From a virus, in the IMG/VR virus record IMGVR_UViG_3300045988_140085, positions 1 through 38,696 of that record: a DNA stretch of 38,696 nt. One strand, 5' to 3'. A program made the translations under genes and the position numbers. Shown piece by piece: positions 13,599 to 38,696 of the stretch. The stretch's first letter is position 1. Each line of letters begins with the position of its first letter. The notes beneath the pieces were generated by a model. It did not search any database. It had not been told where the DNA came from and worked only from the letters and a program-made list of their open reading frames with translations.

Positions 13599-13721
13599 AC
13601 TATAAATCTATTATCCATTCGATAAACACTACCAGTAGTCTGAGAAAGAAACAGATGAAAATTAGTGCTCCTGCGCATACTGACAGTAGCAGTAGAGTAA
13701 AAACGATCCAGTCCAGTATCA

Positions 13722-15645: not shown

Positions 15646-15647
15646 AG

Positions 15648-16715: not shown

Positions 16716-16720
16716 ACTAT

Positions 16721-19054: not shown

Positions 19055-19069
19055 AGTTGTTTTTTTTTT

Positions 19070-19495
19070 TTACTTCCACACTACTACCATACTCGGAAAC
19101 GGTGCGCTATTTTGCGCGTTGCCGAATTTCAATCTACCTTTTATAAAACGTATTTCTTTCGCTTTATGGTAAATGAAATCGTGAAAATACCGCGTATCGG
19201 TCCGTGCCGGAATAAGGGCTACTACAATCGTATTAGGCTTTTGCGATTCTGTGTAACACTTCTTTACCCATTCTTTTATCGCTTTCCCGTACGGAGGGTT
19301 GCAAAACACGGTCTCCCCCTCCCAGTTTTGTTTCAAACCGTTTTCTACGACCGTGTAGAACTTCTCGCACTTAGCGTTTTCCGCAGTAGCGCACGGGTCC
19401 AACGTAAAACTGAACTCTACGTTCAGTTTATCGAAAAAGTCACGTGGGGTCGCCCATAAATCGGTAGCACTTGAAAACATTACATTAGTATTCAT
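19070..19495 (-). CDS. Phage-type DNA N6-adenine methyltransferase (Dam family)
   Basis: WATPRDFFDKLNVEFSFTLDPCA ... VFCNPPYGK ... ALIPARTDTRYF ... FIKGRLKF gives the full motif order of the phage Dam family. Confidence 0.85.
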   Translation of the reverse strand: MNTNVMFSSATDLWATPRDFFDKLNVEFSFTLDPCATAENAKCEKFYTVVENGLKQNWEGETVFCNPPYGKAIKEWVKKCYTESQKPNTIVVALIPARTDTRYFHDFIYHKAKEIRFIKGRLKFGNAQNSAPFPSMVVVWK

Positions 19496-19503
19496 TCTTT
19501 TTT

Positions 19504-19818
19504 TTACTCTAACACCTCGAACCCCTCTTTACGCACCTTACGAATAGCGTTTTTCAAATTCAACGCTTGAACGTACATGCACCCGTCGCGTACTTGCACA
19601 CGGGTTCTGGTACTGACGCCAATCTTTTTCGTCTTCTCATTATAATGATAAGAGTATTGCGCATCTATCTCGGCTACTTGCACGACCTTTGACTTTGAGT
19701 TATACTCAAACAACGTAAGACCGGGATGGCGTATTACCGTCCCCAAAAATCGGTGCTCCTGCTTTTGAGGCTTGGGCGCGACAACCGCGTCCTTTGTTTT
19801 AAGTTTATCGAGTTCCAT
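19504..19818 (-). CDS. Hypothetical protein
   Basis: 104 aa ORF, tightly packed in the operon. Confidence 0.55.
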   Translation of the reverse strand: MELDKLKTKDAVVAPKPQKQEHRFLGTVIRHPGLTLFEYNSKSKVVQVAEIDAQYSYHYNEKTKKIGVSTRTRVQVRDGCMYVQALNLKNAIRKVRKEGFEVLE

Positions 19819-19819
19819 A

Positions 19820-20014
19820 TTACTTTATATTTCCACGTTGATCTAACTCTCGAAAAATGCGTCTCTCTCCCCAATCGCCGCTAAGTAATTCACATATATG
19901 CACGTCTTTACCGTAACATAATTTGATTAACGAACAGTTATAACACGCATTGTCCCCGTCTATAAAACAAAGGGCGTGAGTGATTCCGCATATGGTTACT
20001 TTTACGTCTTTCAT
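19820..20014 (-). CDS. Small Cys-rich protein, paralog B (CxxC-x5-C-x7-C)
   Basis: 64 aa ORF. Shares MKDV.(I/V)TI.G..H.L and CxxCSL...C.......IC with the adjacent 59-aa ORF. Confidence 0.6.
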   Translation of the reverse strand: MKDVKVTICGITHALCFIDGDNACYNCSLIKLCYGKDVHICELLSGDWGERRIFRELDQRGNIK

Positions 20015-20190
20015 ACACGTTCGAAGTAAAACGATTTGTCGAGGTCTGCCCCGCTCAATTTACAGATCGGATCGGTCCAATCGTTACACACCAAACTCAA
20101 CGAACACAGATCGCAGTCGTGCGCACCGTTTGATTCAGTATATACGAGTTTATGGACCTCGCCGTCAATGGTTATAGTTACGTCTTTCAT
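20011..20190 (-). CDS. Small Cys-rich protein, paralog A, 59 aa (MKDVTITIDGEVHKLVYTESNGAHDCDLCSLSLVCNDWTDPICKLSGADLDKSFYFERV), not in the ORF track
   Basis: Hand translation. Its stop overlaps the ATG of paralog B (ATGA). It fills the gap after the polymerase gene. Confidence 0.6.
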   Translation of the reverse strand: MKDVTITIDGEVHKLVYTESNGAHDCDLCSLSLVCNDWTDPICKLSGADLDKSFYFERV

Positions 20191-20199
20191 ATCGGTTAG

Positions 20200-22251
20200 T
20201 TATTTAATGTATCGGTCAGAATAGAATCCGTCGCCTGTCGTAACAAGACCCGGTGCCCACTCGATGGGCCGCTCCATCTCTTGTATAAGGTTTGCGTACG
20301 CCTCAGCGCCATCGTCGACAAGATACCACACTTCGTCATGGACGGTACCCACACACTTATATGTGCAGTATGCGTTTTGTACGCGACGCATAATATCGAC
20401 CAGTATGTCGCGTGCTATCGCCTGTACAATGTTCTCCGTCAACACTCCGCCCCATAGCTTCGTCCGCACGGCGTGTTCTCCGCCTCGGGAGTAATCGAGG
20501 TAATACAAATCGTGCCGTTCGTCCATGTGCACGCCTTTATAGTATAAGGCACGCCCGCTGGGTAAAGTAATCGAAGCGGTTCGACCGTCATACTTAAAGA
20601 CGAGACGCACGTTATCGACAACGGTTACACGGCATACGCTCGATCTCAAAGATTCACGGAACGCACGCTCCAGCCTACGCCACAAATCGCAAATTTCGGG
20701 GTTTGCTCCACGCCATTTACGCACGATCTCCGTAACTTTTTCAAGCCCTACCGTGCGGAAAAAGTCCGGCGCAACGCGGTCGATTGCGTTCGGACCCCCG
20801 CCAAACCCCAACCCGAGTTCCGCGCACTTACCCATCTGTCGCTCCGGCATACCTTTGTGAACCTCCGGGATGTTGAACATACGCTCGGCTGAACGCGAAT
20901 ATATATCCTCTTTGTTGATGAAAGCGTTCATGCGCCATTTGCATTGCGCAAGCCACGCCGTTACGCGCGCTTCGATCTGCGAAAGGTCTGCACACACGAA
21001 GTCCTTACCCGCTCCGTAGATGCACAAACGCAGATGCTTACGCAGGTGGTCGTAGCTTTGTACCTTGGACAGGTCTGTCGACGTGTCGTCTCCTCCGTGT
21101 GCAAAATTTTGCAACTGCACGCCGCGACTACTCCAGCGGCCCGTGTGGGCGCCGTGTCCTACGAATTCACCATGCAGACGGCCGTCCGGGCAAATTCGCT
21201 CGCGGGCCGTTTTGATCTTCGAAAAGGCGGCCCCGGTGGCTTGATCGCGCAACTCCAAAATAGGGTGCGTGACCCCCTCGCGTGCCTTTTTGTTGAGGGA
21301 CGAGAGTGTCACCCCGCACGAGGCTAAAGCGGCCTGCACCTGCTTCGTAGATCGCAAATTCTCTACGCCGTACAGTCGTCGCGCCTCCTCGCCTGCATCC
21401 GTTGCGTATTTATGCGCGAGTGTCTCGATCTGCGTGGCGAGGTCCATATCGAACGGCACTCCATCGAAGTTCATGTAAAATGTAAACTGCATTACGAAAC
21501 ACTCGATGTTCGGAAGCGGAGACATAATTTTATATGCCTGTCGCATTACCTCCACGTCCGAAACTGCGTACAGTTTGAACAATAAGGTACGTTCGATTTC
21601 GATTATCTCCTGCCCGTATTGCATGACAGATTTTACCATAGGACTGTTGTGCAGACCTTGCACATATTCTAGACACACGCGCAGGTGCTCCGCCGTTTCG
21701 ACGTCCCGCACGTCTTCGTTATATCTGCCTACACTCACCGATTTTTCGAACGACTCCGAAAAACGTTCTTTCATTTCGTTATACTGGGTGTCAGTAGGTA
21801 CGCCGAACAAGTCCATCGAATCGGCGGGTGCGGCTTTCTTTACGGGTTTTGCGTAATGCAACATCTGTTCCGGCGAGGCTTTGGCCTGCGTTTTGAGTAC
21901 GTTGGCAAGAAAGCCCAACTTACGGGGCAAGCCGTAGTATGCCGCAACGTATGCGGTATCATACCAGTCACACAAACGCGTGTCGATACCTAATACATGG
22001 ATCGCAATCGCCGCATCGAACTCGGCATTATGCGCAACTTTTAACGTATCGTAGTCCTCGATTGCTTTGTATACCTCCTCCGGCATTTCACGAGACGTAC
22101 ACGCCGTCTCGTCATTAAACGCCCACGAAATAAGCGTCATTTCCGTAGACGCATGGCGAGCATACCTATGGGACCCGACGTCCTGCACGTCCAACTCCGA
22201 ACGTGTCTCGAAGTCAAGAAACAGAATTTGTTTATAGTTCTTGCGTATCAT
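20200..22251 (-). CDS. Family A DNA polymerase with 3'-5' exonuclease domain
   Basis: ExoI LFLDFETRS; motif A CADLSQIEARV; motif B RQMGKCAELGLGFGGG; motif C GTVHDEV. Start at MIRKNY (ATGA overlap with the upstream gene). Confidence 0.9.
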   Translation of the reverse strand: MIRKNYKQILFLDFETRSELDVQDVGSHRYARHASTEMTLISWAFNDETACTSREMPEEVYKAIEDYDTLKVAHNAEFDAAIAIHVLGIDTRLCDWYDTAYVAAYYGLPRKLGFLANVLKTQAKASPEQMLHYAKPVKKAAPADSMDLFGVPTDTQYNEMKERFSESFEKSVSVGRYNEDVRDVETAEHLRVCLEYVQGLHNSPMVKSVMQYGQEIIEIERTLLFKLYAVSDVEVMRQAYKIMSPLPNIECFVMQFTFYMNFDGVPFDMDLATQIETLAHKYATDAGEEARRLYGVENLRSTKQVQAALASCGVTLSSLNKKAREGVTHPILELRDQATGAAFSKIKTARERICPDGRLHGEFVGHGAHTGRWSSRGVQLQNFAHGGDDTSTDLSKVQSYDHLRKHLRLCIYGAGKDFVCADLSQIEARVTAWLAQCKWRMNAFINKEDIYSRSAERMFNIPEVHKGMPERQMGKCAELGLGFGGGPNAIDRVAPDFFRTVGLEKVTEIVRKWRGANPEICDLWRRLERAFRESLRSSVCRVTVVDNVRLVFKYDGRTASITLPSGRALYYKGVHMDERHDLYYLDYSRGGEHAVRTKLWGGVLTENIVQAIARDILVDIMRRVQNAYCTYKCVGTVHDEVWYLVDDGAEAYANLIQEMERPIEWAPGLVTTGDGFYSDRYIK

Positions 22252-22661
22252 CGTTTTGTAATCTCCTCTATTACTTTGTAAATAAATGCGGATCGCTGTG
22301 CGTACCTGAGTTCGTAATATACCGCATTGAGCAACATACAAGCGTTCTTTACACTCAGTTGTTCCAAAGCGTTCAATTTTGCTTTATCTACGTTATATTG
22401 ACGTTGCGTTTCTTTCCACACCATTACGTTAACAGGGTTGTTCCATGTGGCTACGACGGCCCCGCGGCTATGTATAACCGCGTTGTTCTCGAACTCATGC
22501 GCTACTATTGCACCCGGTACCGCGTAAGGATTGACTTTAGCGTTGTAAAGCACATGCGTACCTTTGGTACTATCGGTCAGATCATCGAGATTATCCAAAC
22601 GTAAGTAATGATACCCGTATTCGTTCCGATACATGTAGCATAAATAACCCATCTCTTTCAT
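22248..22661 (-). CDS. Hypothetical protein
   Basis: ORF. Start moved to MKEMGY, which carries the conserved leader ttaaaaattaaacgtATG. Confidence 0.55.
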   Translation of the reverse strand: MKEMGYLCYMYRNEYGYHYLRLDNLDDLTDSTKGTHVLYNAKVNPYAVPGAIVAHEFENNAVIHSRGAVVATWNNPVNVMVWKETQRQYNVDKAKLNALEQLSVKNACMLLNAVYYELRYAQRSAFIYKVIEEITKR

Positions 22662-22684
22662 ACGTTTAATTTTTAAGAAATTTG

Positions 22685-22734
22685 CACGTTGTGCCGTCCC
22701 GCCCGGCGAGGCTTTCGCCTCTCTATGCAACGTG
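22685..22734 (-). promoter_or_regulatory. Structured intergenic element: outer stem cacgttg/caacgtg enclosing gaggc-gaaa-gcctc (GNRA-type tetraloop hairpin)
   Basis: Read directly in the 128-nt gap between the SSB gene and the next gene. Terminator or processing-site candidate. Confidence 0.4.
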
Positions 22735-22789
22735 TCCCTTTTTAAAAAGGTAAGTCGCCGTTATCGTTTTCGATAGGTGCGCCCGGTTT

Positions 22790-23389
22790 TCAGGCGTATT
22801 CTTCGAGGTCGATATAATCGTCGACGTTGTTCGACGATCCGGCGATACGTTCACCGTCGGCATACTTCACCACAGCGTGAACATTGCAACCGATGCCCTG
22901 CGCGGTGGAGTTGTAATACGTCCAGAACGATACGTTTGCAATGATGTAATCGCCATCCTCCAGACGTTCGTCGGAAAGGTTTTCCACCGACACGTTCGGC
23001 ATGGGCACACCGTTTATAATCATACGGCGTTGCATGTCCGATACCAACGGGCGGAAATTCTTGGACGCTACTTTGAGCATCATATACCCGCGAAACGCTT
23101 CTTTGCCGTCGTTCATATCGGCGAACTCGTCACCGTCAACCCAGCAGTTATTTTTAGGGTTGATCGCTTTCGCGTTCTTGCCTTTGAATCCTTTCGACTG
23201 AAGTTCTGCGAACGCTTCGGCGAAACGGTCGTTGATCTGTTTGACTTTGTCCTCGTCCGTCTTAGGCACGAGGATAATTGCGTTGTACTTGGGGTCGCCC
23301 TCCACACCCTTTACTGCCTTTTTCTCGAAAAGACCTGCGGGGTACACGACACGGCACACGGGTGCGCCCTTAATTTGAAATCTGTCCAT
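22790..23389 (-). CDS. Single-stranded DNA-binding protein, T7 gp2.5-like (DUF2815-type)
   Basis: 199 aa. The N-terminal pattern (YPAGLFEKKAVKGVEGDPKYNAIILVPK) and the acidic aromatic C-terminal tail (NNVDDYIDLEEYA) are typical of phage SSBs. Confidence 0.65.
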   Translation of the reverse strand: MDRFQIKGAPVCRVVYPAGLFEKKAVKGVEGDPKYNAIILVPKTDEDKVKQINDRFAEAFAELQSKGFKGKNAKAINPKNNCWVDGDEFADMNDGKEAFRGYMMLKVASKNFRPLVSDMQRRMIINGVPMPNVSVENLSDERLEDGDYIIANVSFWTYYNSTAQGIGCNVHAVVKYADGERIAGSSNNVDDYIDLEEYA

Positions 23390-23421
23390 ACGTTTAAATT
23401 GTTTAATTGGTTTGAAATGTG

Positions 23422-23853
23422 TTATGCGTTTTTAAGCGCGTTAATGTAGTACTCTTTGAGACGTTTTTGTCCCTCGTCGTCATCCTCCGAGATGAAAATA
23501 TGGGCGAGAGTAAGCACGTTTTTGTCCGTAACGTTCAGCGTTACGCCGTTGCTCACCTCAAACTGCAACATTATGCCTTGCACGAAGACCTGTTCGTGCA
23601 AATCCATGCAGTCTTTTACATAGTCGTGCAGGTCTTTGAGTGCGTCGGCCTCGTCTGCCTCCCCGATCAAGGCCTCCCACAGACCTTTAGACTGTTTGAT
23701 CGTTTCGATCAGTCCGATGACGTGGCAGGCCGTCGATACGTCGGGATTCGGGAACTTTTCGACCGTGTTCCCGATCTTAACCTCCAAAGCGCCGTTTTCG
23801 TACTCAACGAATTTTGCGCTCATAAGAGCGTTCAAATCATAATAGCTTTTCAT
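23422..23853 (-). CDS. Hypothetical protein
   Basis: 143 aa ORF with the conserved leader aattaaacgtATG. Confidence 0.55.
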   Translation of the reverse strand: MKSYYDLNALMSAKFVEYENGALEVKIGNTVEKFPNPDVSTACHVIGLIETIKQSKGLWEALIGEADEADALKDLHDYVKDCMDLHEQVFVQGIMLQFEVSNGVTLNVTDKNVLTLAHIFISEDDDEGQKRLKEYYINALKNA

Positions 23854-23861
23854 ACGTTTAA

Positions 23862-24599
23862 TTAAATTAAAGGATTTATAACGTTAGCGAGTTTACATAA
23901 CTCGACAATACGTTCGGAATGGTTTAAGTAGTAATACGAACTTTTATGCAACAACGTAACCGGGAGTTCGTACCGACGGTCCGGCGTGTAGCCCGCACGA
24001 GTAAAAAGACCAATAAGATACTCTACGTTGCAATGGTTTTGGTAAGACTTACGTCGGTGAAACTCGTCGCGCGGCACCTCGTCCGTGAAAAATAAGTCCA
24101 TCATGTCGCCCGTTGATAGCGTGTTATTACACTCTATATAAATATGATCGAAACGTTTGTCTTTCAACGCACGAATGATGTATTTTTCGTCCACAATTTC
24201 GTTAAAATCGGTAAGCCAAAGGATCGTTTGCGGTTCAGCGTATTCCGACCGTGCACACCTTTGTATCTCGAAGCCCACGCACGGGACGTCATGCCGCAAG
24301 GGGATGATCTTAACGGTGTATTGGAACTCATTGGAACACAGCACTTTAACGTCACCCGGGGTAAGGCTGGAGAATGCCAAGAAAGGCCATTTATGGGCTA
24401 ATCTGTCGGCTGTCTCGGGGGTGCAGTAGGTAGGTAAGCCCCCCACCTTATCGAGGCATTTTGTGTGGTCCGTGTGGTTGTGAGTGAGTAATACATGCTC
24501 CCCTTTGGGCACCTCGGGCCACCCTACGTCAATAATCAGAAAGTCGTCGATTGATGCGGTGTTACCGCTACTACCGGAGTGTACTATATTTACGTTCAT
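23862..24599 (-). CDS. Metallo-beta-lactamase-fold hydrolase (possible nuclease)
   Basis: HxHxDH motif LLTHNHTDHTK near the N-terminus; later His/Asp ligands (RHDVPCVGF, LTDFNE). Confidence 0.75.
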   Translation of the reverse strand: MNVNIVHSGSSGNTASIDDFLIIDVGWPEVPKGEHVLLTHNHTDHTKCLDKVGGLPTYCTPETADRLAHKWPFLAFSSLTPGDVKVLCSNEFQYTVKIIPLRHDVPCVGFEIQRCARSEYAEPQTILWLTDFNEIVDEKYIIRALKDKRFDHIYIECNNTLSTGDMMDLFFTDEVPRDEFHRRKSYQNHCNVEYLIGLFTRAGYTPDRRYELPVTLLHKSSYYYLNHSERIVELCKLANVINPLI

Positions 24600-24602
24600 A
24601 CC

Positions 24603-25079
24603 TTATACGTTTAACTTTGCACCGCTTGCGTTTTCGATCGCTTTGAGGACTTGATCCAATTTGTTGGCGTCACGTTCGGACAAAGCCGTGAACAGGTTTG
24701 TCAGTACCTTACGACGCAAGGCGTGGAATGTAGGATTTGCGAACGCATTAACGAGGTCACGACCGCCCCGTTTCTCGTGCACAACACGGAACTCACGCAC
24801 GTTAAATTCGCTCATATCGTCCCCGTTAGGGAACTCGACACAAACGGTAAACCAGCCTTTGAACCCCGGCAGGCATTCGTCCGGCGACTCGACCCCGGAC
24901 GAAAATACATTGCGTATTAGATCATTGATACCCTCGACGCTACCGCACTCCATGATGGTACGGGGTATATCAGCACACCCGAAACCGTACCCTATATATT
25001 TTAATGGTGTGTAGTACTTGCGCACGCTCGTTTGGATATAATTTGCGTGCACCGTTACCGTTAAGACGATGTTATTCAT
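24603..25079 (-). CDS. Hypothetical protein
   Basis: 158 aa ORF. Confidence 0.55.
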   Translation of the reverse strand: MNNIVLTVTVHANYIQTSVRKYYTPLKYIGYGFGCADIPRTIMECGSVEGINDLIRNVFSSGVESPDECLPGFKGWFTVCVEFPNGDDMSEFNVREFRVVHEKRGGRDLVNAFANPTFHALRRKVLTNLFTALSERDANKLDQVLKAIENASGAKLNV

Positions 25080-25106
25080 GGCTTAATTATGTTAAATTAT
25101 TAGGGC

Positions 25107-25132
25107 CCGGCGGTCCGATCAAAGACCGCCGG
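25107..25132 (-). terminator. Hairpin; sense strand reads ccggcggtc-tttgatcg-gaccgccgg (9-bp stem, 8-nt loop)
   Basis: Read directly in the gap between 25145 and 25079. The loop is identical to that of hairpin 3751..3774, but the stem sequence differs. Confidence 0.6.
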
Positions 25133-25144
25133 ACAAGATGCGCA

Positions 25145-25702
25145 CTACTGGATGCCGTGCGTCTCGGCTATCGCACGCAGGCGGGCCGTTTCTTGCGCTT
25201 TTTGGTAGAGTGCATCCAACTGATCCGCTACGACCGGATAGTGATTGAACGCGGGTCCGCGCTTGCACTCCGTGACAAAACAGCAATAGTTGCCATACCT
25301 CAGACAATACCCACCGCTCTCCACCGTAATCGTCGCACCTTTATCGACCAATTCGGTCCATTGTTTTATGATGTTAATAAACGTTCGCGGTACTTTTTTC
25401 CATCGTGCCGCCTCGCCGATTAATCCGCCCGCACTCGACATCTTTTGTACAAGCCAGTCGATAGTAGGCTCTTTGGGGTATTGGTACGTCTTACTCCCGT
25501 TGCGCGTTTCGATCTTTATACCGGACCGCGCTACGCGCGGGAAATTGGTGTACCAATCATTATACTCCTGCGAAACTTTCGCAGGAAATAGACATACATC
25601 CACACCGTACTCGTCGGATAGCTTTTTAAGACGTTCGTACAAAGCGCGTGATTCCTCGGACGTATCCGGGATTATCGGGTTCCCTTTCTTCGCTACCACC
25701 AT
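25145..25702 (-). CDS. Hypothetical protein
   Basis: ORF. Start moved to MVVAKKG, because the longer N-terminal extension overlaps a better micro-ORF. Confidence 0.5.
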   Translation of the reverse strand: MVVAKKGNPIIPDTSEESRALYERLKKLSDEYGVDVCLFPAKVSQEYNDWYTNFPRVARSGIKIETRNGSKTYQYPKEPTIDWLVQKMSSAGGLIGEAARWKKVPRTFINIIKQWTELVDKGATITVESGGYCLRYGNYCCFVTECKRGPAFNHYPVVADQLDALYQKAQETARLRAIAETHGIQ

Positions 25703-25800
25703 GATATAAACGATGCTATAATAATAACTACTACGATTACATATAGCAACCCTACGCACATAAAGAATAGAATTGCAAAATCTTTTTGGTCTTCCTCCAT
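25693..25800 (-). CDS. Micro-ORF, 35 aa membrane peptide (MEEDQKDFAILFFMCVGLLYVIVVVIIIASFISWW), not in the ORF track
   Basis: TAAGGTATG start context right after the upstream stop. Its TGGTGGTAG end overlaps the downstream ATG. Fills a 100-nt gap. Confidence 0.5.
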   Translation of the reverse strand: MEEDQKDFAILFFMCVGLLYVIVVVIIIASFISWW

Positions 25801-25803
25801 ACC

Positions 25804-26325
25804 TTAATCTTTTGTTACCATCTCCCACGAATCAGTGAGCGAATTGTGTTTGCCGTACTTGGTTGCGGATAGGAACATGGCACCGGGGGTACGTTTTTCG
25901 AACATCTTTTGTGCGCTGTACACGTCCGGTGCTTCTACGCTGGCGTGGTACCCGTTGCAATCCGCAGGATCGGCCTTTGTATAGATTATATCATAGCCGA
26001 ATTTGTCGTACAGTCGCCCAAACTCTTTGTAATGATCCTCTACGATCTGCCGCGCGGCCTCTTTGAGAATGCACACGCGCGTTGAGGGTGTCGAATGCTC
26101 CCCAACTGCATCTAACAAACGGTGGTCCGTGGGGCAGGGCAGTCGGCCCCATTGCGAAATAGACGTCACCCGTGTGTTAAATGCTTCGTCATTCTCCCAC
26201 GCTCGTACCAACTCTTTAGTCGTCCATCGCTCCAATACGATCCGCTTGTGCAAGCCGTTCACGAACTGTGCGAGATACTCGCGGTGCGTGCATTTGTGAT
26301 TAAGATAGTCCTGACGTGTGTACAT
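25804..26325 (-). CDS. Hypothetical protein
   Basis: 173 aa ORF with leader cttaaacactcaaaactATG. Confidence 0.55.
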   Translation of the reverse strand: MYTRQDYLNHKCTHREYLAQFVNGLHKRIVLERWTTKELVRAWENDEAFNTRVTSISQWGRLPCPTDHRLLDAVGEHSTPSTRVCILKEAARQIVEDHYKEFGRLYDKFGYDIIYTKADPADCNGYHASVEAPDVYSAQKMFEKRTPGAMFLSATKYGKHNSLTDSWEMVTKD

Positions 26326-26424
26326 AGTTTTGAGTGTTTAAGTTTGCGGGCAATATCGCCCGGTTCGTGCGTTACGCGGTTTCGCTCCGCCGTGTTGCGT
26401 CTTACGCAAATAACGCTACCCCCT

Positions 26425-27618
26425 TTACTCTCCGACGGTGAAACGTATTACGTTCTGCACGTCGTCGAGGCCCTGCACGCTCTCGGCGTTGTCGATGATG
26501 ATCGGTATCTTGTCGATGGTACCCGTCATCACTCGCGCCGTCTCCAATATCCGCACGCATATCTCTACGCGCTTGGCCCGGTTAACGCTTTTGAGCGGCA
26601 CACCTTTGTAGGTGAGGGTGCAGGTGGACGAGGTGCGCCCGGTTGTCTTGGCCGTCGTCTCGGTTATGATCTGCACGTCGTCCGGCAGGGCGGGACGGAC
26701 TGCCGCCGCATCAGCGGCCCGGATTTGTTCCTCCAGCGCGGCCATCTGCTCGTCGATGTCCTGCACACGACGGCGTGCGCCGGACGCCCGCGATATGATC
26801 GCTTCGGCCTCATTGATGGCCGCCGTCTCAGCATTGTAGGCTTTGAGCCGCTCGGTTATCCTCTCCACCTCCGCCCGCATACCTTGATAGGCTTCGTTGG
26901 CGGCGTCCCGCTCGCGGCGCACGGCGTCGATCTCGGCGGCTGTGTACTGCTTGCCGCACGTCGGGCAGACTGTCGGCAACGTCCCGCCGATCCGGTTAAG
27001 CGTCGCAACGTGCTCACCTGCTCGCGCCATGTAGTCCGTTTCGGCCTCGGTCAGCGGCTCGACGGTCCGGGTAGGCACGGCCACGGTGGTTAGCGCGTAT
27101 TGCTCGGCCGCGCGGCGTTCTTTGCGCAGGGCATCACGCTCGCGCCGGAGGTTTGTCGCTTCGTCGTTCTCAACGAGGGACGCACGCGCTAACAGGCGGC
27201 GTAACTGCTCGGCGGTAAGCGCCGGGTCGGTCAAAAGGTTTGCGTCAGCACACGCGACTACGAGGTCAATAGGTATGCCGAAACGCTGGGCGAGGATGTC
27301 GGTAAACTCGGCTTGCGTAACCACCTCATCGCACAAATATAATTGTGTCGATCCCTTGGGGGTGAGTACACGCCGTATAGTCGTGCCGTCGGAGGGCCAG
27401 CCCGTAATCGTTACACAGGTGTTGACACTTGGGCTTGGGTCCATACCTGTCTGCGGGTCTATGCGCCGCGGTTGGAACCCGTTGAGCGTTCTACCCGTGA
27501 GGGCGAAGACCCATGCGTTAACCTGCGTTGTTTTGCCCGCCCCGTTAGGCATCGTGCGGGATGTGAATGGCGCGTTAAAGACATCGAACGCGCCAAATAG
27601 TACCATTGATAGTTTCAT
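26425..27618 (-). CDS. Mini Rad50/SbcC/SMC-like ATPase with a central CxxC zinc-hook-like motif
   Basis: Walker A MPNGAGKTT at the N-terminus. A long Arg/Glu/Ala coiled region has CPTC (26956..26967) at its midpoint. C-terminal IPIIIDNAES is Walker-B-like. Confidence 0.7.
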   Translation of the reverse strand: MKLSMVLFGAFDVFNAPFTSRTMPNGAGKTTQVNAWVFALTGRTLNGFQPRRIDPQTGMDPSPSVNTCVTITGWPSDGTTIRRVLTPKGSTQLYLCDEVVTQAEFTDILAQRFGIPIDLVVACADANLLTDPALTAEQLRRLLARASLVENDEATNLRRERDALRKERRAAEQYALTTVAVPTRTVEPLTEAETDYMARAGEHVATLNRIGGTLPTVCPTCGKQYTAAEIDAVRRERDAANEAYQGMRAEVERITERLKAYNAETAAINEAEAIISRASGARRRVQDIDEQMAALEEQIRAADAAAVRPALPDDVQIITETTAKTTGRTSSTCTLTYKGVPLKSVNRAKRVEICVRILETARVMTGTIDKIPIIIDNAESVQGLDDVQNVIRFTVGE

Positions 27619-27647
27619 ACGTTTAAGTGTTTAAGAGTTTTAAAAGA

Positions 27648-27678
27648 GTCCCCGGCCCGGCACCTCCAAGCCGGGGAC
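27648..27678 (-). terminator. Rho-independent terminator; sense strand reads gtccccggc-(13 nt)-gccggggac followed by tcttttaaaa
   Basis: 9-bp GC stem plus a U-rich tail, 60 nt after the stop of 27740..28345. The conserved leader motif follows immediately. Confidence 0.7.
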
Positions 27679-27739
27679 GTAGTAAGGTATGCACCGCCTG
27701 CGAAAGCGAATGGTTTTTGATGCACACCTATTTACCTCT

Positions 27740-28345
27740 CTACTGCGCGTCCGGGTCGATACCGGCGGCGATCAGCATTTGCCGCAGACGCTCGGCTTCG
27801 CTCTGCATCTTGACGGCCTTGCTCTCGACCTCGGCCAGTCGTGCCGATACGCTCGCGCGGCCCGCGCTCTTAGGCAGTTCGAACGACATTACGACCTCTT
27901 TTGCGGCCTCGACGTCGGCGTCGAACTGTTCCGCTTCCTCTTTGCGGGCCTGCAACTCGGCTTCGAGGCGGGCGATCTCGGCGACGATCTTCTCGCGGTT
28001 CTTCTCCTCGGCCTGCACGAAAGCGGCGGCACGTTTGGCGGCGATCTCGGCGGCACAGTCGGCGGGGATTTCGATGTCCTCGACCACACCACGCACGAGT
28101 TTTTCGGTCCCATCTTCCTGCTTGGTGAGCGTTGCGCGGAAGAAATTCCCGGTTCGCTTCTCGAAGTTGAGCGCGGCGGCACTCAATGCGGGCAGTTTGG
28201 CGCGGAGAATCGCGGTTGCTTTCTGCACCTCGGGCGTTGCGTTTTCGGCGGCCTCTTTTTCAGCGTGTTCTGCGGGGATCGGCTCGGTCTGCGGCTTCAT
28301 CTCCTGCAATTCGTTCGGGTTCTGTACTTTCGTTTCGTTTTTCAT
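27740..28345 (-). CDS. Hypothetical coiled-coil protein (Ala/Glu/Lys-rich)
   Basis: 201 aa ORF. It is the only frame with a sensible start and leader (aaaaacatttacaggtATG); the antisense ORFs are GC artefacts. Confidence 0.6.
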   Translation of the reverse strand: MKNETKVQNPNELQEMKPQTEPIPAEHAEKEAAENATPEVQKATAILRAKLPALSAAALNFEKRTGNFFRATLTKQEDGTEKLVRGVVEDIEIPADCAAEIAAKRAAAFVQAEEKNREKIVAEIARLEAELQARKEEAEQFDADVEAAKEVVMSFELPKSAGRASVSARLAEVESKAVKMQSEAERLRQMLIAAGIDPDAQ

Positions 28346-28396
28346 ACCTGTAAATGTTTTTAAGTGATTAATAATTAGACGTCTTTACGTCGTTGT

Positions 28397-28444
28397 GGCG
28401 GGCCGGGGTGTTACTCCCCGCGGGACGGTTTGCCGTGACCCGCC
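28397..28444 (-). other. GC-rich multi-hairpin element (outer ggcggg/cccgcc; inner cgggg-tgttact-ccccg and acgg-tttg-ccgt)
   Basis: Read directly in the 104-nt gap between 28450 and 28345. Confidence 0.4.
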
Positions 28445-28449
28445 GTACC

Positions 28450-28884
28450 TTATTTGTTGTACTCCCGGTCGAATGCACGGAGTAAATAGTAGTCCTTTTT
28501 GTAGTACTTGCTTACTATTAGCACCCTTTGCGACGTATTGAGGCCTATGGCCATACCTGCTACACCTTGAACGTACGTTACTAACGGCAGGTCTTCGTGT
28601 ATCGCTGTTTTGTACGCTTCGTCGTACTCCTTGAACGTTTTGAATCTTACCTCTTTTGTCGAGGCGCTACGCACCACGATTGCAAACTCCCCCTCGGCTG
28701 TTGTGACGATCTTTGCGCGTCGTATCGGCTCGTACTCCTTTTTGCACCTCTCGCAGAACTCCGTTACGGTCATCTGTTCGTCGTATAACCGCGAATAGTC
28801 CATTACGTTGTACAGTCGGGCCGTCGTGTCATACGTTACACGCACTAACGTGCTACGCTTTTTGTTGATATAATACGTTGTCAT
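28450..28884 (-). CDS. Hypothetical early protein
   Basis: 144 aa ORF. Confidence 0.55.
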   Translation of the reverse strand: MTTYYINKKRSTLVRVTYDTTARLYNVMDYSRLYDEQMTVTEFCERCKKEYEPIRRAKIVTTAEGEFAIVVRSASTKEVRFKTFKEYDEAYKTAIHEDLPLVTYVQGVAGMAIGLNTSQRVLIVSKYYKKDYYLLRAFDREYNK

Positions 28885-28890
28885 ACCTTG

Positions 28891-29235
28891 TTAGTCTAAG
28901 ATAAAACAAACTACGTTATACATGTGCTTTTCGTCCGGGTCCCGCACCGCTATCACGGCGTCAGCCACATGCCCGAGGTAGGCAAGCCTACCTAAAAGTA
29001 TCTCGGATTGATCGCTTTGATCTACGATGCCCACCACCGTGCATTTGGTCTTTTCGTCCATTGCCTGCCGTATTCGTGGCGTGCAAGTGAGCACTACGCC
29101 GTCGCCGTCCTCCGGCGTTATCTCCGTCTCGACCCCCGCCGTACCTTTGAGCAGGTCCCCGGCGCTCAACAGTGCGTAATTCTCTGGTTCGATGTTGAAC
29201 TCTTTGGTGATCTTCAAAAACTCGATTGCTTTCAT
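28891..29235 (-). CDS. Hypothetical early protein
   Basis: 114 aa ORF with leader cacttaaacacttaaacgtATG. Confidence 0.55.
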   Translation of the reverse strand: MKAIEFLKITKEFNIEPENYALLSAGDLLKGTAGVETEITPEDGDGVVLTCTPRIRQAMDEKTKCTVVGIVDQSDQSEILLGRLAYLGHVADAVIAVRDPDEKHMYNVVCFILD

Positions 29236-29274
29236 ACGTTTAAGTGTTTAAGTGTTAGAGCCGGGCCACGGTTT

Positions 29275-29652
29275 TCATTGCATACAACGCTCGATTAACG
29301 CCCACGCCCGTATATGCGCCCTTACTTGCACGTCCATCCACGTTTCGCGTGCGTTGGGGGCCTTGCGTCCATAGTCGGTACGTCTCAACTCGGACGGCGT
29401 GCAAAGCGTTTCAGCGATTTCTCCGTCGTAGATCATTGCACAACCGCCATAACAATACTGTTCCCAGCCGTTCGCACCGTTAAGTACAGTTTTTTCGGTT
29501 AGCGGGGGCACCGAGTCTGACCCCTCCCGATCCCGTACTATCTCCTCGTACCTGTCTAACAGACCCTTGGCGATCTCTTTCACGCCCTTGTCCCATGCTG
29601 ACCGGGGTTTAATGCCCTCCAGTCGTACCCGTATCTTCTGCATCTCTTTCAT
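29275..29652 (-). CDS. Hypothetical early protein (first gene of the leftward operon)
   Basis: 125 aa ORF with leader cttaaactatttaaaaacttaaacacttacaactATG. Confidence 0.55.
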   Translation of the reverse strand: MKEMQKIRVRLEGIKPRSAWDKGVKEIAKGLLDRYEEIVRDREGSDSVPPLTEKTVLNGANGWEQYCYGGCAMIYDGEIAETLCTPSELRRTDYGRKAPNARETWMDVQVRAHIRAWALIERCMQ

Positions 29653-29725
29653 AGTTGTAAGTGTTTAAGTTTTTAAATAGTTTAAGTATATCGGGGTGTC
29701 GTTATCTTCTCCCCCTTTCGTTACA

Positions 29726-29756
29726 CAAATATACAACGAAAAAACGGAATCACAAA
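29726..29756 (-). promoter_or_regulatory. Leftward (early) promoter, Bacteroidota type: TTTG-N19-TATATTTG
   Basis: Sense strand reads ttatTTTGtgattccgttttttcgttgTATATTTGtg. Perfect match to -33 TTTG / -7 TAnnTTTG with 19-nt spacing, about 70 nt upstream of ATG 29652. Confidence 0.65.
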
Positions 29757-29956
29757 ATAAAATTACGGAAAAATGTGATAAAATCGTGAAATAAAACGGT
29801 TTTGTGTACTATACACCCCTTGCAGACCTTTTTTGTTTACTTTCCTGCCCTTGCATACCTTTTTTGTTTTGGGTCCGGGCCGAAACGGTTTACTTTACTT
29901 TACAGGGTGTTAAGTAAAAAGACGAAAATCGTTAAGTAAATGACAAATGATTTCGC

Positions 29957-30782
29957 TGTAAATCAGTAAGTTACAAAGGTGCTTACTTAACCCCCTTGAG
30001 TATCAACGAGTTACACGGGAAAATGAACTCCCTGTAAATCAAGTAATTACAAGGGTCATTTTGTAACTACTTGTCGCACAGTCGGTTAGACGGGAAGATT
30101 AACCCGCTAACAATCAAGCAGTTACAAGGGTCTAATTTCGCGGAATCAAATTCGAAAAATGTGAGTCCCTGTAAATCAATACGTTACAACCTAAAAATTC
30201 CACGAAATCGAACACCTCCGGGAAGATGCAAAAACCTAACTTTTTCACGACTTTTCGACCCCCCAAGGGCCATTTTCCACGAATAAGTTAGGAATTACAT
30301 TAAAAAATTACCCCTTGAAATTTATAAACGTTTGATAATCATAGGTTTGCAGAGATTTTATTTTCCGGCAAATGGCATGAAATCGCTGTAAAGGTCTGTA
30401 AATCAATACGTTAATCTTCCGCTGTAACGCCCTGTAAATCAAGGCGTTACAAAAGGCCTCGTAACGTATTGATACTCAGCGGGTTAATCTTCCGCGGCAA
30501 CGCCCTGAGTATCAAGTAGTTGAAAAATGGCCCTTGTAACTTGTTGAAAGTCAGCGAGTTCATTTTCCCGGGTAATTCACTGAGTATTAGCAACTTAGAG
30601 AGACCGATTATCAGGCAGTTACAGCCCTTGATAATCAGGCAGTTACGAAAATTGACCGACTAAATTGGTAGACCAATTTTTACTCAGAAGCTAATGCGTT
30701 GATAACCAAGTAGTTAATAGAATTAGAAAAAACTATAAGCTATGCAAATAGTTCTAAACTGCTTGATTTATAGTGAGTTACG
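29957..30782. repeat. Array of at least 15 copies of a 19-bp iteron TG(T/A)RWATCARNNNGTTAC(A), in both orientations
   Basis: Forward copies start at 29957, 29997, 30033, 30108, 30170, 30397, 30433, 30506, 30581, 30605, 30629, 30700 and 30764. Reverse copies lie at 30062..30080, 30460..30478 and 30535..30553. Confidence 0.8.
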
Positions 30783-30886
30783 GCGATACGGCGGCCCGTC
30801 GGCCCGGCGATACGGCGCGAAAGGCTGGCCGCCGAGACGCCGCCCCGCTGTTTCAATAATTGAACTTGCTCCCCGTGGAACACTCT

Positions 30887-30946
30887 CGACGTATCGACGT
30901 ATCGACGTATCGACGTATCGACGTATCGACGTATCGACGTATCGAC
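30887..30946. repeat. Perfect 8-bp tandem repeat cgacgtat x 7.5
   Basis: Read directly. Flanked by GC-rich blocks carrying related cgatacgN octamers in the opposite orientation. Confidence 0.95.
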
Positions 30947-31078
30947 TGAATGGGAATGCGTATGAGATAAATACGATACGGCGATACGACGGCCCGACGG
31001 GCCGGCGCGAAATCGAATCGCCGGGGCAAACAGGCGGCGGGGGGTCGGCCCGCTGACCGGGCTCCCCGACGTATCGTC

Positions 31079-31262
31079 AAAAAAATTTTTTAAAAGTACC
31101 ACCGGAATAGTAGGTCTAAAAATTTTTAAAAGTACAATTAATAGGGTAGGCCTAAAAATTTTTTAAATGGTAAAATTGGAGTAGCGTATACGTTTAATTT
31201 TTAAATGGTAAAATTGGAGTAGCGTATACGTTTAATTTTAAAACGGCAAATTTGGAGTAGCA
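31079..31262. repeat. AT-rich tandem repeats, about 5 units of 36-38 bp; the two central units are an exact 42-nt duplicate (31160..31201 and 31198..31239, period 38)
   Basis: Read directly; units begin near 31079, 31117, 31154, 31196 and 31234. Confidence 0.85.
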
Positions 31263-31406
31263 CACACGTTACGACGGCCCGACGAGACGATGCCCCAAAT
31301 TCCAACGCTGAAACTGCGTCCCGACCCAAATAAAATAGGTATGTAGACGTAAATCGGTCGATTTCGATTCTGTGGAAAAGAATTTCACGAAATTCATGGA
31401 CGAAAG

Positions 31407-31437
31407 TTTGAAATGTCGGAAAATTTTATTATCTTTG
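31407..31437 (+). promoter_or_regulatory. Rightward (late) promoter, Bacteroidota type: TTTG-N19-TATCTTTG
   Basis: cgaaagTTTGaaatgtcggaaaattttatTATCTTTGaat is a perfect consensus match with 19-nt spacing, 22 nt upstream of ATG 31460. Confidence 0.65.
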
Positions 31438-31459
31438 AATGACGAGAAAATTTTCACGC

Positions 31460-31678
31460 ATGAAAAAAGTTCAAAAACGCTTACAGGACCTTACGACCAT
31501 GATCCTCAACCATGAGGACCCTACGTCGGACGAGTGCGCCGCGTATATCGCTGAACTCAAACTGTTGCGTGAGTTGATCGCCACATGGAAAGCGTTCAAC
31601 GGGTACGAGGGGGACCTCGACCCGGACGCCGACCCCGGAGACAGGCCCGAGCGGAAATCGACGCAGGTGTGGGAGTAG
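31460..31678 (+). CDS. Hypothetical small protein upstream of the large terminase (a small terminase role is possible but unsupported)
   Basis: ORF. Start moved to MKKVQK because ATG 31439 would lie at or upstream of the predicted transcription start. Confidence 0.5.
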   Translation: MKKVQKRLQDLTTMILNHEDPTSDECAAYIAELKLLRELIATWKAFNGYEGDLDPDADPGDRPERKSTQVWE

Positions 31679-31705: not shown

Positions 31706-33136
31706 ATGGGACTTACAACGAAAATACGGCTCACGAAAAAACAGAACGAAGCGATACGGCTTTTGGACGACAGACACAAAGACCTCATACTCTTGCTGGG
31801 GGGCTCGGGATCGGGGAAATCTTTTGTCGAAGTCTACAAGGTCATACGCGACGCACTGCGGTACAAAGCCCCGTGTCTTATCGCCCGTGACAAACTGATC
31901 GACTTGACCACAGGTGTGATCGACCAAATCGTTCCGGTGATCCTCCAGTTGATCGCAGAGGAGAACGGGCAGGAGAGATGGGACAAATGGACCATCGACG
32001 GGTTGAAGTTCGCCGTTTGGTCGGACAAACGAACCAAACTTACGTTCGCAACAGGCGGTTATGTAAGGTTCGCAGGTCTGTCGAAACGTGACATATCGGA
32101 GAGCGGTTCGGATAAAATCCTCTCGCCGTCGTGGTTGCACATCGCAATCGAGGAGGTGTCGGAGGTCGATTGGCCGATCATTGAGTTACTTATCACACGT
32201 TTGCGTTTTCAGACCGAAGGTGTGACAAATAAACTCATAATGACGGAGAACCCGCCGTCGATGTATCACTTCTCGTACAAACGTTTTTTGGAGAACCAAC
32301 GCGAGGACGGATCGGAGTTGCCGGAGGAGGAACGCGCACGACAAGCGTACCTTTTCATGCAACCAAAAGACAACGAGGAGAATCTTTCGGAGAACTATAT
32401 ACGTAACCTTTCGCAACTGTCCGGCGCGAATCGGGAACGTTTCTATTTGGGACAGTTCCAAGACGCAGAGCAGGGAGAGATATTCAAACGTATAAGTTGG
32501 ACGAAAGTCCTGCCGCGCAAGTGCGAGTGGGAGCGGTTGTGCATATACACCGACCCGACCCCGCTTACAGGTACGGACCACAGCATTTGGGCGGACTATA
32601 AGGCAAGCGTGCTTTGCGGTCTGTTTGACGGTAACGCATACGTGCTCGACATACGCATCGTAAAAGGCTCTACGTTGCAAATGCTTAACAACATCAAGCA
32701 GTTGTGGGACATGTCGCCAAACCAATCCATAACAGAGGTATGGATGGAGAAAAAGCAGATACCGTCGGACTTCGATCAGGTCATGCGTAACTTTGCGCTT
32801 ACAACCGGGTGGATGTGCCCCGTAAGGTATGACACGCGCAACTTCGGTGACAAGACCGCCGCAATCGAGACGTTCCTCGAACCGCTGTTCGAGGACGAGC
32901 ATATATTTTTTAACAACGCATTCCGCGATACGGAGCGTGGCCGACAGTTGCAACATCAGATACTTAAGTTCTCGCGTAAGCAGAACAAGAACAGGCACGA
33001 CGATATACCGGACGCAATCATGCGTTGCGTAACGAAATTAATGGGTAAAAAGGGACGTAAGCAACGTATGAAAGACGCACCGTTGGTTATGTTCGCAAGA
33101 CCCGGTTACATTCACGATATAGTAAACAATGGATAA
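31706..33136 (+). CDS. terL: Terminase large subunit
   Basis: Walker A LLLGGSGSGKSF, Walker B-like WLHIAIEEVSE, and a C-terminal nuclease region with ...CIYTDPT... and NRHDDIPDA acidic motifs. Confidence 0.85.
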   Translation: MGLTTKIRLTKKQNEAIRLLDDRHKDLILLLGGSGSGKSFVEVYKVIRDALRYKAPCLIARDKLIDLTTGVIDQIVPVILQLIAEENGQERWDKWTIDGLKFAVWSDKRTKLTFATGGYVRFAGLSKRDISESGSDKILSPSWLHIAIEEVSEVDWPIIELLITRLRFQTEGVTNKLIMTENPPSMYHFSYKRFLENQREDGSELPEEERARQAYLFMQPKDNEENLSENYIRNLSQLSGANRERFYLGQFQDAEQGEIFKRISWTKVLPRKCEWERLCIYTDPTPLTGTDHSIWADYKASVLCGLFDGNAYVLDIRIVKGSTLQMLNNIKQLWDMSPNQSITEVWMEKKQIPSDFDQVMRNFALTTGWMCPVRYDTRNFGDKTAAIETFLEPLFEDEHIFFNNAFRDTERGRQLQHQILKFSRKQNKNRHDDIPDAIMRCVTKLMGKKGRKQRMKDAPLVMFARPGYIHDIVNNG

Positions 33137-38107: not shown

Positions 38108-38696
38108 TGAGGGTATCAGAAAAGAAACAGGTTCTTACGACCAGCGCGGTCAATCTGAACGGGGTTCAGATTCCGACTGACTGTATCGACTGGAGTGTCT
38201 ACGACAAGAACCCCGTACTTTTGTACAATCGTGCAAACGAGAGTCACAAAGGTGTGGTAGTAGGTAAGGTTCTGAACCGCGAACGTGTAGGGGATGCGAT
38301 TGTTGCAAACCTCGCTTTCATGGAACGGAACGAGGACGCGGATATCGCGTTCGAAAAGTACGATCAAGGCGTCCTGCCTCACGTTTCTGTGGGTGGATAT
38401 GCACGCGGCGAGGAAAACTCGGAGGGCGTATTTATCTGCGACAAGTACATGATTCGTGAGGTATCGCTCGTAGCGTTCCCCGCAAACATCGAATGTGCTG
38501 TGTTGGACGACAACAACGTACTCGCATCAGAACAGCCGATCGTGGAAGGTATGCGAACGGGCAAAACCGAAATCCGTTATGTAACGTTGAGTTGGGACGG
38601 TGATATGGGAACCATCGTGAACGCATCCGAGGAAACGCAGGCCGCAGAGACCAACGCATCCGAGGAAACGCAGGCCGCAGAGACCAACGCATCCGA
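38107..38696 (+). CDS. HK97-family prohead (capsid maturation) protease, S78 type. The ORF is not terminated in the window and continues in frame at base 76 into 113..1429. Not in the ORF track.
   Basis: Hand translation: MRVSEKKQVLT...NESHKGVVVGKV (His), HVSVGGYARG (Ser), IREVSLVAFPANIE (family hallmark). Its ATG overlaps the upstream stop (TAATG). Confidence 0.8.
   Translation, partial: MRVSEKKQVLTTSAVNLNGVQIPTDCIDWSVYDKNPVLLYNRANESHKGVVVGKVLNRERVGDAIVANLAFMERNEDADIAFEKYDQGVLPHVSVGGYARGEENSEGVFICDKYMIREVSLVAFPANIECAVLDDNNVLASEQPIVEGMRTGKTEIRYVTLSWDGDMGTIVNASEETQAAETNASEETQAAETNAS
38620..38696 (+). repeat. In-frame 33-bp tandem repeat (aacgcatccgaggaaacgcaggccgcagagacc, encodes NASEETQAAET); 2 full copies plus a diverged partial copy continuing at 76..85
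   Basis: Exact tandem copies at 38620..38652 and 38653..38685; the same text is seen at 1..66. Confidence 0.9.

Follow-up and report, generated by a model that had tools for sequence, protein, structure and literature searches.

A divergent non-coding gap that most likely holds the replication origin of a human-gut Bacteroidales phage lineage

What a phage keeps in 1.8 kb of DNA without genes, in a genome that is otherwise packed, is the question raised by IMG/VR record IMGVR_UViG_3300045988_140085. The stretch analysed, which we will call the window, covers positions 1 to 38,696 of this record and is a complete, circularly assembled phage genome of ~38.6 kb, in which positions 1–77 are the same as 38620–38696. 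The phage is a virulent-looking, human-gut Bacteroidales phage. Its late block on the plus strand encodes the terminase, a Mu-type portal, and tail and baseplate proteins, while the early block on the minus strand (13722–29652) encodes an SNF2 helicase, a primase/helicase, a Dam methylase, a family A DNA polymerase, and an Enc34-type single-stranded DNA-binding protein. No integrase, repressor, or ParB has been detected among the genome's proteins by family scans. By far the largest gap in the genome, 29653–31459 (1807 bp), lies between the ATG at 29652 (minus strand) and the ATG at 31460 (plus strand). This gap is a cis-acting, non-coding control hub that most likely holds the replication origin. 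On balance, we lean modestly towards one joint explanation, in which the left half of the hub is the origin and the right half is a second cis element, with a packaging-initiation (pac) type of site as the leading guess for the latter.

Relatives of the phage have been found solely in human-gut metagenomes (46 loci), to which seven viral contigs can be added. None were found in the genome collection, and the lineage has no isolate. No DNA-level similarity to deposited phages was found, and the closest terminase large subunit (TerL, encoded at 31706–33136) among deposited phages is only 40% identical. Lineages have been defined by TerL identity to the window as A (95–98%), B (74%), C (70%), D (68%), and E (65–67%). 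The longest open reading frames (ORFs) within the gap are 71, 104, and 120 amino acids (aa) long, and in six of six close relatives each of the three is interrupted by a frameshift or by 2–6 in-frame stops. The flanking gene at 31460–31678, which encodes 72 aa and serves as the control, is intact in all six. Because its longest ORFs are broken in relatives in which the flanking gene is intact, the gap is non-coding, as the first-pass annotation of this DNA had claimed when it described an ORF-free gap of 1.8 kb in a packed genome. An equivalent ORF-poor gap of roughly 1.5–1.8 kb is present in every lineage. Homologous phages do not hold protein genes here, so the objection that the gap consists of decayed genes fails.

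A gap that encodes no protein could still encode one or more structured non-coding RNAs, and this reading, taken together with that of decayed protein genes, is most improbable. It would account for the GC-rich islands within an AT-rich context, and the fold energies are slightly better than those of shuffled sequences (z = −2.0 and −2.5). However, the gap has no Rfam match at E ≤ 1 and no tRNA, and no internal consensus promoter or terminator was found in it. The consensus fold reaches just −6 kcal/mol with a covariation term of +0.14, relatives at every distance are without ORFs here, and the gap ORFs are broken in the close relatives. The earlier suggestion that non-coding RNAs are possible is therefore not supported.

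The left half of the gap is occupied by repeated sites arranged around an AT-rich core:

29954–30192, all plus strand: iteron zone 1, five 26-bp sites starting at 29954, 29994, 30030, 30105, and 30167 (core and matrix searches).
30198–30283, plus strand: three TTYCACGA words, at 30198, 30243, and 30275, in a conserved block.
30283–30343, no strand: AT-rich core that separates the iteron zones (79% AT) and could be a DNA-unwinding element.
30394–30651, mixed strands: iteron zone 2, with plus-strand sites at 30394, 30430, 30503, 30602, and 30626 and minus-strand sites at 30419, 30456, and 30531.
30697–30775: two degenerate outlying iterons found by the matrix, at 30697 (plus strand) and 30750 (minus strand), in a poorly conserved AT-rich stretch.

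The iteron sequence, CnCTGnnnATCAAnnnGTTACAAnnn, spans 26 bp and has the internal dyad CTGTAA...TTACAG. The 13-nucleotide (nt) core of the iteron, ATCAAnnnGTTAC, has 16 matches genome-wide with at most one mismatch, and 11 of them are inside the gap. A 26-nt position matrix is more selective; at a threshold of ≥12 bits, all 15 of its genome-wide matches lie inside 29954–30775, including four sites outside the training set. Zones 1 and 2 are related by a 127-nt imperfect long-range dyad, whose arms (30003–30129 and 30457–30583) are 73% complementary. An iteron field with long-range dyad symmetry had been correctly noticed, with the sites given as 19 bp. The AT-rich core is the second least stable 60-nt duplex window genome-wide, the region 30231–30305 has a conservation of 0.80–0.91, and a weak −7 box is present at 30342–30349 (plus strand). 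The iteron word is found in 10–13 copies in lineage A, 7–8 in B, 1–2 in C, and none in D. Such lineage-specific words are expected of initiator/origin pairs.

A candidate initiator is encoded in the early block:

16721–19054, minus strand: 777-aa fused primase and superfamily 3 (SF3) helicase-initiator, candidate iteron binder (structure and family matches).

Residues 343–688 of this protein match PDB 7PDS, the Rep1–DNA complex of the Staphylococcus aureus pathogenicity island SaPI1, with E = 2.5e-57 by sequence. Primase families match its N-terminal third, the protein has matches in both the primase and the helicase families of PHROG, and with its Rep-type remainder it therefore has the architecture of PriRep5. 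Some 60 orthologues of it were found. The C-terminal domain, which is the most divergent domain of the protein, was modelled as residues 640–777 from a 67-sequence alignment (pLDDT 78.8). The top structural match of the model is again to 7PDS chains (E = 2.5e-5, probability 1.0, TMq 0.62), after which assorted winged-helix DNA binders are retrieved.

SaPI Rep proteins are initiator and self-loading helicase in one, and their C-terminal winged helix recognises the iterons (PMC9371898). Their origins have 6–12 iterons of opposed orientation split by a central AT-rich region, with a pair of hexamers proposed to load, one per side (PMC9371898). The phage protein shares with SaPI Rep and PriRep (PMC9371898; PDB 7PDS, 7OLA) a homologous helicase core and a C-terminal DNA-binding domain, and with PriRep5 the fusion of initiator to primase. 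As in SaPI origins, several iterons flank the AT-rich region of the phage locus on either side, and some of them point in the opposite direction. On the other hand, SaPIs are satellites, and the present case is a complete phage with a Bacteroidales host. Since the iterons flank an AT-rich core and the phage encodes a homologue of SaPI Rep, whose origins share this layout, the left half (29954–30775) is probably the replication origin, as initiator homology and site grammar both suggest. In this model, which follows the one proposed for SaPI Rep, the phage's own primase/Rep-type self-loading SF3 helicase would bind the 15 iterons through its winged-helix C-terminal domain. Its hexamers would assemble on either side of the AT-rich core at 30283–30343, melt the core, and initiate replication in both directions. 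The first-pass annotation had recognised the grammar of an origin in iterons plus an AT-rich block. That combination now gains independent support from the initiator, although the AT element is 30283–30343 and not the 38-bp repeats of the right half; between these and the iterons lie ~300 bp of GC-rich DNA.

Other well-known origins bear a partial resemblance. The lambda origin (ori) has dyad-symmetric iterons of ~19 bp adjoining an AT-rich segment but lies within the initiator gene. The alpha protein of P4 is a fused primase-helicase with a C-terminal origin-binding domain, like the 777-aa protein, but the P4 ori/crr system uses 8-bp iterons and needs a second cis region.

Several observations weigh against an origin in the left half. 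SaPI iterons are 5–6 nt long and lie immediately downstream of rep, whereas the phage sites are 26 bp long with an internal dyad, number 15 over ~800 bp, and lie 10.6 kb from the rep gene. The orientation of the iterons is not cleanly opposed, with five plus-strand sites in zone 1 and five plus-strand and three minus-strand sites in zone 2. The easiest-melting segment of the genome is in the right half, outside the iteron zones. The cumulative GC-skew minimum falls inside the gap, as would suit an origin, but is fully confounded with gene orientation. The identity of the C-terminal domain is 0.56 in lineage B, which shares the iteron word, and 0.49 in lineage D, where it is absent, a difference too small to discriminate. 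Finally, the iterons could be operators. Other findings are consistent with an origin in the left half, namely the divergence of the C-terminal domain and the absence of a DnaA-box cluster, which was searched for. An alternative origin beside the rep gene was considered and rejected; no rival iteron or repeat cluster adjoins 16721–19054.

The possibility of operators has to be weighed together with the borders of the gap, which contain the following features:

29658–29687, minus strand: 5' leader of the first leftward gene with a TAAGTGTT-type octamer repeat ×3.6 (tandem-repeat scan).
29726–29756, minus strand: leftward Bacteroidota-type promoter, −33 TTTG and −7 TATATTTG, consensus matched exactly.
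29800–29867, plus strand: 31-nt ×2.2 tandem duplication (tandem-repeat scan).
31274–31406, plus strand: conserved region upstream of the rightward promoter (conservation 0.82–0.98), with a TTTCACGAA word at 31383–31391.
31407–31437, plus strand: rightward Bacteroidota-type promoter, −33 TTTG and −7 TATCTTTG, consensus matched exactly.
31452–31460, plus strand: TTTCACGCA word just downstream of the rightward promoter (word search).
31460–31678, plus strand: 72-aa protein of no assigned family, immediately upstream of TerL (family scans).

The Bacteroidota-type promoter pattern that was searched (−33 TTTG, N19, −7 TAnnTTTG) has four matches genome-wide versus 0.54 expected. The two that bound the gap are correctly oriented upstream of genes and conserved in lineage A, where the −7 and −33 elements of the leftward promoter are kept at a conservation of 0.89–0.96. 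Two host-type promoters fire outward, with transcription starts predicted near 29719 and 31444, one into the early (replication) block and the other into the late (terminase and structural) block, in agreement with the two outward-facing perfect promoters described earlier. The 22-bp direct repeat that had been listed beside them exists but is part of the 31-nt tandem, which is confined to the sublineage of the window. The 31-nt unit is doubled only in the window and in L027 and is single-copy in the other close relatives; the direct repeat is a recent local duplication.

The iteron field sits between these two divergent promoters and could be an operator array that times them, with the origin elsewhere or with initiation that depends on transcription or recombination. 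The internal dyad of the sites is typical of dimeric regulators, and the words differ among lineages in the manner of immunity specificities. TTYCACG words bracket the rightward promoter; in lineage A, those at 31383 and 31452 are conserved, and other conserved words occupy the origin spacer. Recombination-dependent replication could be supported by the SbcC-like and nuclease genes that are present. However, no repressor, helix-turn-helix, or ribbon-helix-helix protein was detected anywhere in the genome by family scans, and the leftward and rightward promoters are ~200 and ~630 nt away from the nearest iteron, respectively. An AT-rich core with 15 sites spread around it over 800 bp follows the grammar of an origin, and among the phage's own proteins is an initiator of a class that binds iterons. 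We therefore consider an operator array unlikely and retain the left half as the probable origin.

The right half of the gap has a different organisation, which begins with a GC-rich domain and ends with A/T-rich repeats:

30776–30885, plus strand: GC-rich block 1, 8-nt phased (lag-8 z = 4.8).
30867–30882, no strand: decayed host-type parS, TGCTCCCCGTGGAACA, with 14 of 16 matches to TGTTCCACGTGGAACA.
30886–30946, plus strand: perfect octamer array (TCGACGTA) ×7.6 (tandem-repeat scan; ×3.0–12.2 among relatives).
30947–31021, plus strand: GC-rich block 2, which consists of degenerate octamers and repeats block 1 directly (z = 3.4 at lag 8 and 3.5 at lag 16).
31022–31078, plus strand: conserved G-rich motif region, with AAACAGGCGGC at 31028–31038, followed by ...GGGG..GCGCTGACC..CCGACG.
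31079–31091, no strand: A7T6 tract directly after the motif (A-run of A6 to A33 among relatives).
31082–31273, plus strand: five A/T-tract-led repeat units, 36-nt ×2 (31082–31153) and 38-nt ×2.7 (31160–31273) (repeat scans).

The region ~30800–31130 is the only part of the gap that is detectable in all lineages by an nhmmer profile search. AAACAGGCGGC is invariant in lineages A, B, D, and in E-type contigs, and is replaced by AAACAGGGCGAC in lineage C. The consensus of the motif core is GGYAAACAGG(C/G)G.C...GGGG...GC.C..ACC...CCGA, and an inverted partial copy of the motif (CGCCGCCCCGCTGTTT) is found in block 1 at 30838–30853. Variant positions in the motif break base pairing (covariation term +0.14), and with no pairing preserved at these positions, the motif behaves as a DNA site and not as an RNA helix. 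It is always followed by an A-run/T-run and then by lineage-specific A/T-rich repeats, an architecture that is conserved across lineages A–E. In the window, 31117–31177 is the least stable duplex window of the genome. In L031 (163–195) the A-run after the motif is an A33 homopolymer, while the others are A6–A10; this is either extreme slippage or an assembly artefact.

Perfect tandem arrays with a period of 8 or 16 are found upstream of the motif in every lineage. Their units vary both between and within lineages (GTATCGAC, CGGCCCGG, GTAACGCT, TACAGACG, TTGCCGCCGAAACGTT, CAAAGGCG, and ACGGCTCG), and the copy number of GTATCGAC ranges from ×3.0 to ×12.2 between near-identical genomes. The phase is not confined to the arrays. 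When the perfect array of the window is removed, lags 8 and 16 are still the top autocorrelation peaks (z = 5.6), and the same peaks are found in lineages B and E, both without long arrays (z = 5.9 and 8.1). Across all five lineages the 8-nt phase gives z = 5.6–12.6, against 0.6 and 1.6 for coding controls. A GACG core common to all octamer units was considered and ruled out, as it has 11 copies in lineage A and 1–2 in D. The period is conserved, the repeat unit is not, and no common core explains the phase. To our knowledge, an 8-nt phase with lineage-specific units has no described counterpart. The GC-rich blocks around a perfect 8-mer array and the AT-rich 38-bp repeats of the first-pass annotation are both present, the latter joined by the 36-nt pair. 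Its description of the repeat systems as unrelated is only partly right, since the octamer array is a local expansion within a GC domain that is 8-nt phased throughout.

Arrays of this kind raise the question of whether they have any function. The octamer arrays and the variable A-run could be products of neutral slippage, which would leave only the promoters, the iterons, and the short conserved motif as functional. Units and copy numbers vary freely between near-identical genomes, the arrays are perfect and hence recent, and the same 8-nt slippage habit is seen in the AT-rich leaders of early genes. On the other hand, the 8-nt phase persists in degenerate non-array sequence in all five lineages, which points to long-term maintenance at one locus and makes a purely neutral origin quite unlikely. 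The evidence points, more weakly than for the origin, to the right half (30776–31273) as a second conserved cis element, made of the phased and slippage-prone GC-rich domain around AAACAGGCGGC and the A/T-rich tract and repeats behind it.

The leaders mentioned above are worth describing in their own right. AT-rich octamer arrays of the TAAGTGTT/GTTTAAGT type lie directly upstream of early leftward start codons at 27621–27640, 29238–29256, and 29658–29687. In the relative L004, such leader arrays are found at 2–106, 445–493, and 643–664, and one of them runs to 13 perfect copies. If the host does not use Shine-Dalgarno sequences, the arrays could act as unstructured leaders for translation; alternatively, they could be a further mark of the 8-nt slippage habit.

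Packaging is the function most readily proposed for the right half. The motif is found 411–641 nt upstream of TerL wherever the pattern was found, with a comparable distance in lineage C, and in the window ~430 nt separate it from the small ORF ahead of TerL. Every lineage has it, over TerL identities of 65–98%. A pac-type site is the leading guess because of this position near the terminase genes and the conservation with the packaging module, and it is plausible, as the first-pass annotation proposed for the region from its position, that the motif domain is a packaging-initiation site. Short reiterated sequences accompany known packaging or cleavage signals, such as SRL/SRR in T7 and pacL/pacR in SPP1, and the herpesvirus 'a' sequence has DR2 arrays with GC-rich and T-rich pac motifs. 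The phage domain, as a candidate signal, shares with these a conserved GC-rich motif, an A/T tract, and variable-number short tandem repeats near terminase genes. Another parallel in layout is the satellite PLE of Vibrio phage ICP1, in which a validated ori and a putative pac site share one intergenic region (bioRxiv 10.1101/2024.04.22.590561). In both cases a single non-coding region ahead of packaging-related genes combines an iteron-type origin with a pac candidate. PLE differs in being a satellite that mimics the pac site of its helper and in having a validated ori, whereas in the phage both elements are predicted and the conserved motif resembles no known pac site.

Some points weigh against a pac site. 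The 72-aa protein was considered as a recognisable small terminase subunit or DNA binder and rejected, as it belongs to no Pfam or PHROG family and shows a pattern of two helices and an acidic tail; its homologues are found in this phage lineage only. For the packaging mode of TerL, relatives of solved structure gave no match, and PHROGs returned only generic terminase families. Contig ends were considered as physical genome ends and rejected. Many are 250–800 nt upstream of TerL, and nearly all of these are inside tandem arrays; the ends cluster at the gap because assemblies break in tandem arrays.

The TTYCACG words and the decayed parS of the right half might hint at a different function. 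The words had been noticed earlier as a scattered TT(T/C)CACG(A/C)A sequence. Their enrichment is real but modest (TTYCACGMA occurs five times genome-wide versus 2.1 expected, with four of the five in the gap, and the 7-mer TTYCACG has a density of 3.8/kb in the gap versus 0.46/kb elsewhere), while the inverted copy near 29785 is not conserved. TTYCACG is half of the 16-bp palindrome TGTTCCACGTGGAACA, a relation that the first-pass annotation missed, along with the 8-nt phase of the GC domain and the invariant AAACAGGCGGC. In P. aeruginosa and P. putida, TGTTCCACGTGGAACA serves as the perfect parS site of the chromosome, and half-parS heptamers are also recognised by some ParBs (PMC4368675; PMC7022226). 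At position 2, where P. aeruginosa half-sites have an invariant G, the half-words of the window do not, and perfect half-parS heptamers occur in the window at chance level, with no enrichment. The parS copy of the window fails the 16-bp palindrome TGTTNCACGTGNAACA with two mismatches, one of which breaks the central CACGTG. A perfect TGTTCCACGTGGAACA is present at the same position, just 5' of the arrays, in L004, L029, and L034 (lineage A2), in lineage C (two tandem copies), and in D, even though the flanks are unalignable among these lineages; the site is absent in B and E. Being kept in some lineages and decayed or lost in others, parS is constrained in some and dispensable in others.

The 16-mer is widespread. 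It is found in >120 genome loci, often as 2–5 copies within a few kb; in gut Bacteroidales genomes the exact 16-mer is in or beside gidA. It also occurs in at least 120 other viral contigs of IMG/VR (including L244–L323) and is therefore not unique to this phage family. Compared with chromosomal ParABS (PMC4368675; PMC7022226), the relatives carry the exact TGTTCCACGTGGAACA and the window carries a 14/16 copy and half-words, but the phage encodes neither ParB nor ParA, and the site is decayed or lost in several lineages. A crude literature search found no phage-borne host-type parS without a phage ParB. No ready precedent was found for a conserved 8-nt phase with churning sequence or for a host-type parS in relatives without their own ParB.

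The GC-rich, 8-nt-phased domain with its parS could be a platform for partition or DNA organisation and not a packaging site. On this reading, parS would be the loading site of host ParB, or a different protein would polymerise in 8-bp steps, and a carrier-state episome would be segregated or replicated DNA organised. This would explain why a perfect TGTTCCACGTGGAACA is held in place in A2, C, and D despite unalignable flanks, and it agrees with the identity of the sequence to a known chromosomal parS, which is often clustered in bacterial genomes and lies beside gidA in gut Bacteroidales. Family scans found no phage ParB or integrase. Some centromere or operator binders use tandem short-period boxes, such as the 7-bp heptads of omega and the 8-bp metboxes of MetJ. 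However, parS is decayed in the window and its sublineage and absent in B and E, and is therefore dispensable; the repeat units differ among lineages without a common core; half-parS heptamers are at chance level in the window; and the 16-mer in at least 120 other viral contigs is not special to the lineage. A partition platform is thus doubtful, and a pac-type site is kept as the leading guess for the right half.

Side observations have been made at the left border of the gap and elsewhere. The first leftward genes beside the gap are mosaic (window 28450–29652 compared with L004:124–664, L008, L006:6822–8281, and L017:2522–4240), with small genes added or exchanged in relatives in the interval from the gap to the homologue of a 125-aa gene; the left border is therefore a hotspot of early-gene exchange. 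The 77-nt direct repeat of the genome ends (1–77 and 38620–38696) is itself a perfect 33-nt ×2.3 tandem repeat, and it is most likely a circular-assembly overlap broken at a repeat rather than a physical terminal repeat. The convergent late/early junction at 13200–13225 is marked by a clean bidirectional terminator hairpin, AAAAGCCCGAC...GTCGGGCTTTT, and the remainder of 13230–13720 probably contains small minus-strand ORFs. Within the replication module, 15181–15645 encodes a ferritin-like protein of the Dps/ferritin family (Pfam E = 1.7e-10), an unusual auxiliary gene. In the structural module, the 197-aa ORF 1466–2059 contains an 18-nt ×4.4 near-perfect tandem repeat (CCGGAGCCCGCAAAGGAG, 1868–1946), which encodes a PEPAKE-type hexapeptide repeat. 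A 24-nt repeat that ends in ...TTTCAT occurs twice, at 19992 and 20168, in the 381-nt stretch (19819–20199) that separates the DNA polymerase from the next gene on the list; the two copies look like paralogous starts of small unlisted minus-strand ORFs.

The origin candidate and its named initiator provide a testable handle on replication in uncultured Bacteroidales phages and, if the origin is true, a minimal replicon for the engineering of such phages. The AAACAGGCGGC motif with its A/T tract is a defined packaging-signal candidate. The hypervariable octamer arrays explain the assembly breaks at the locus and could serve as strain markers. A more speculative proposal, to which we give little weight, is that gut Bacteroidales phages without lysogeny or partition genes put a host centromere, parS, beside their origin, in the GC-rich domain that keeps its 8-bp phase as the sequence churns, and that host ParB, with SMC recruited through it, or a novel protein that polymerises in 8-bp steps assembles there. 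If true, this would be a new kind of phage cis-platform, coupling the segregation of a carrier-state episome or the organisation of the genome to packaging, and the window would represent a lineage in the course of losing its parS. The host-type parS of the relatives raises the question of whether apparently virulent gut phages persist via the segregation machinery of their hosts, which bears on the stable coexistence of phages and hosts in the gut, a long-standing puzzle.

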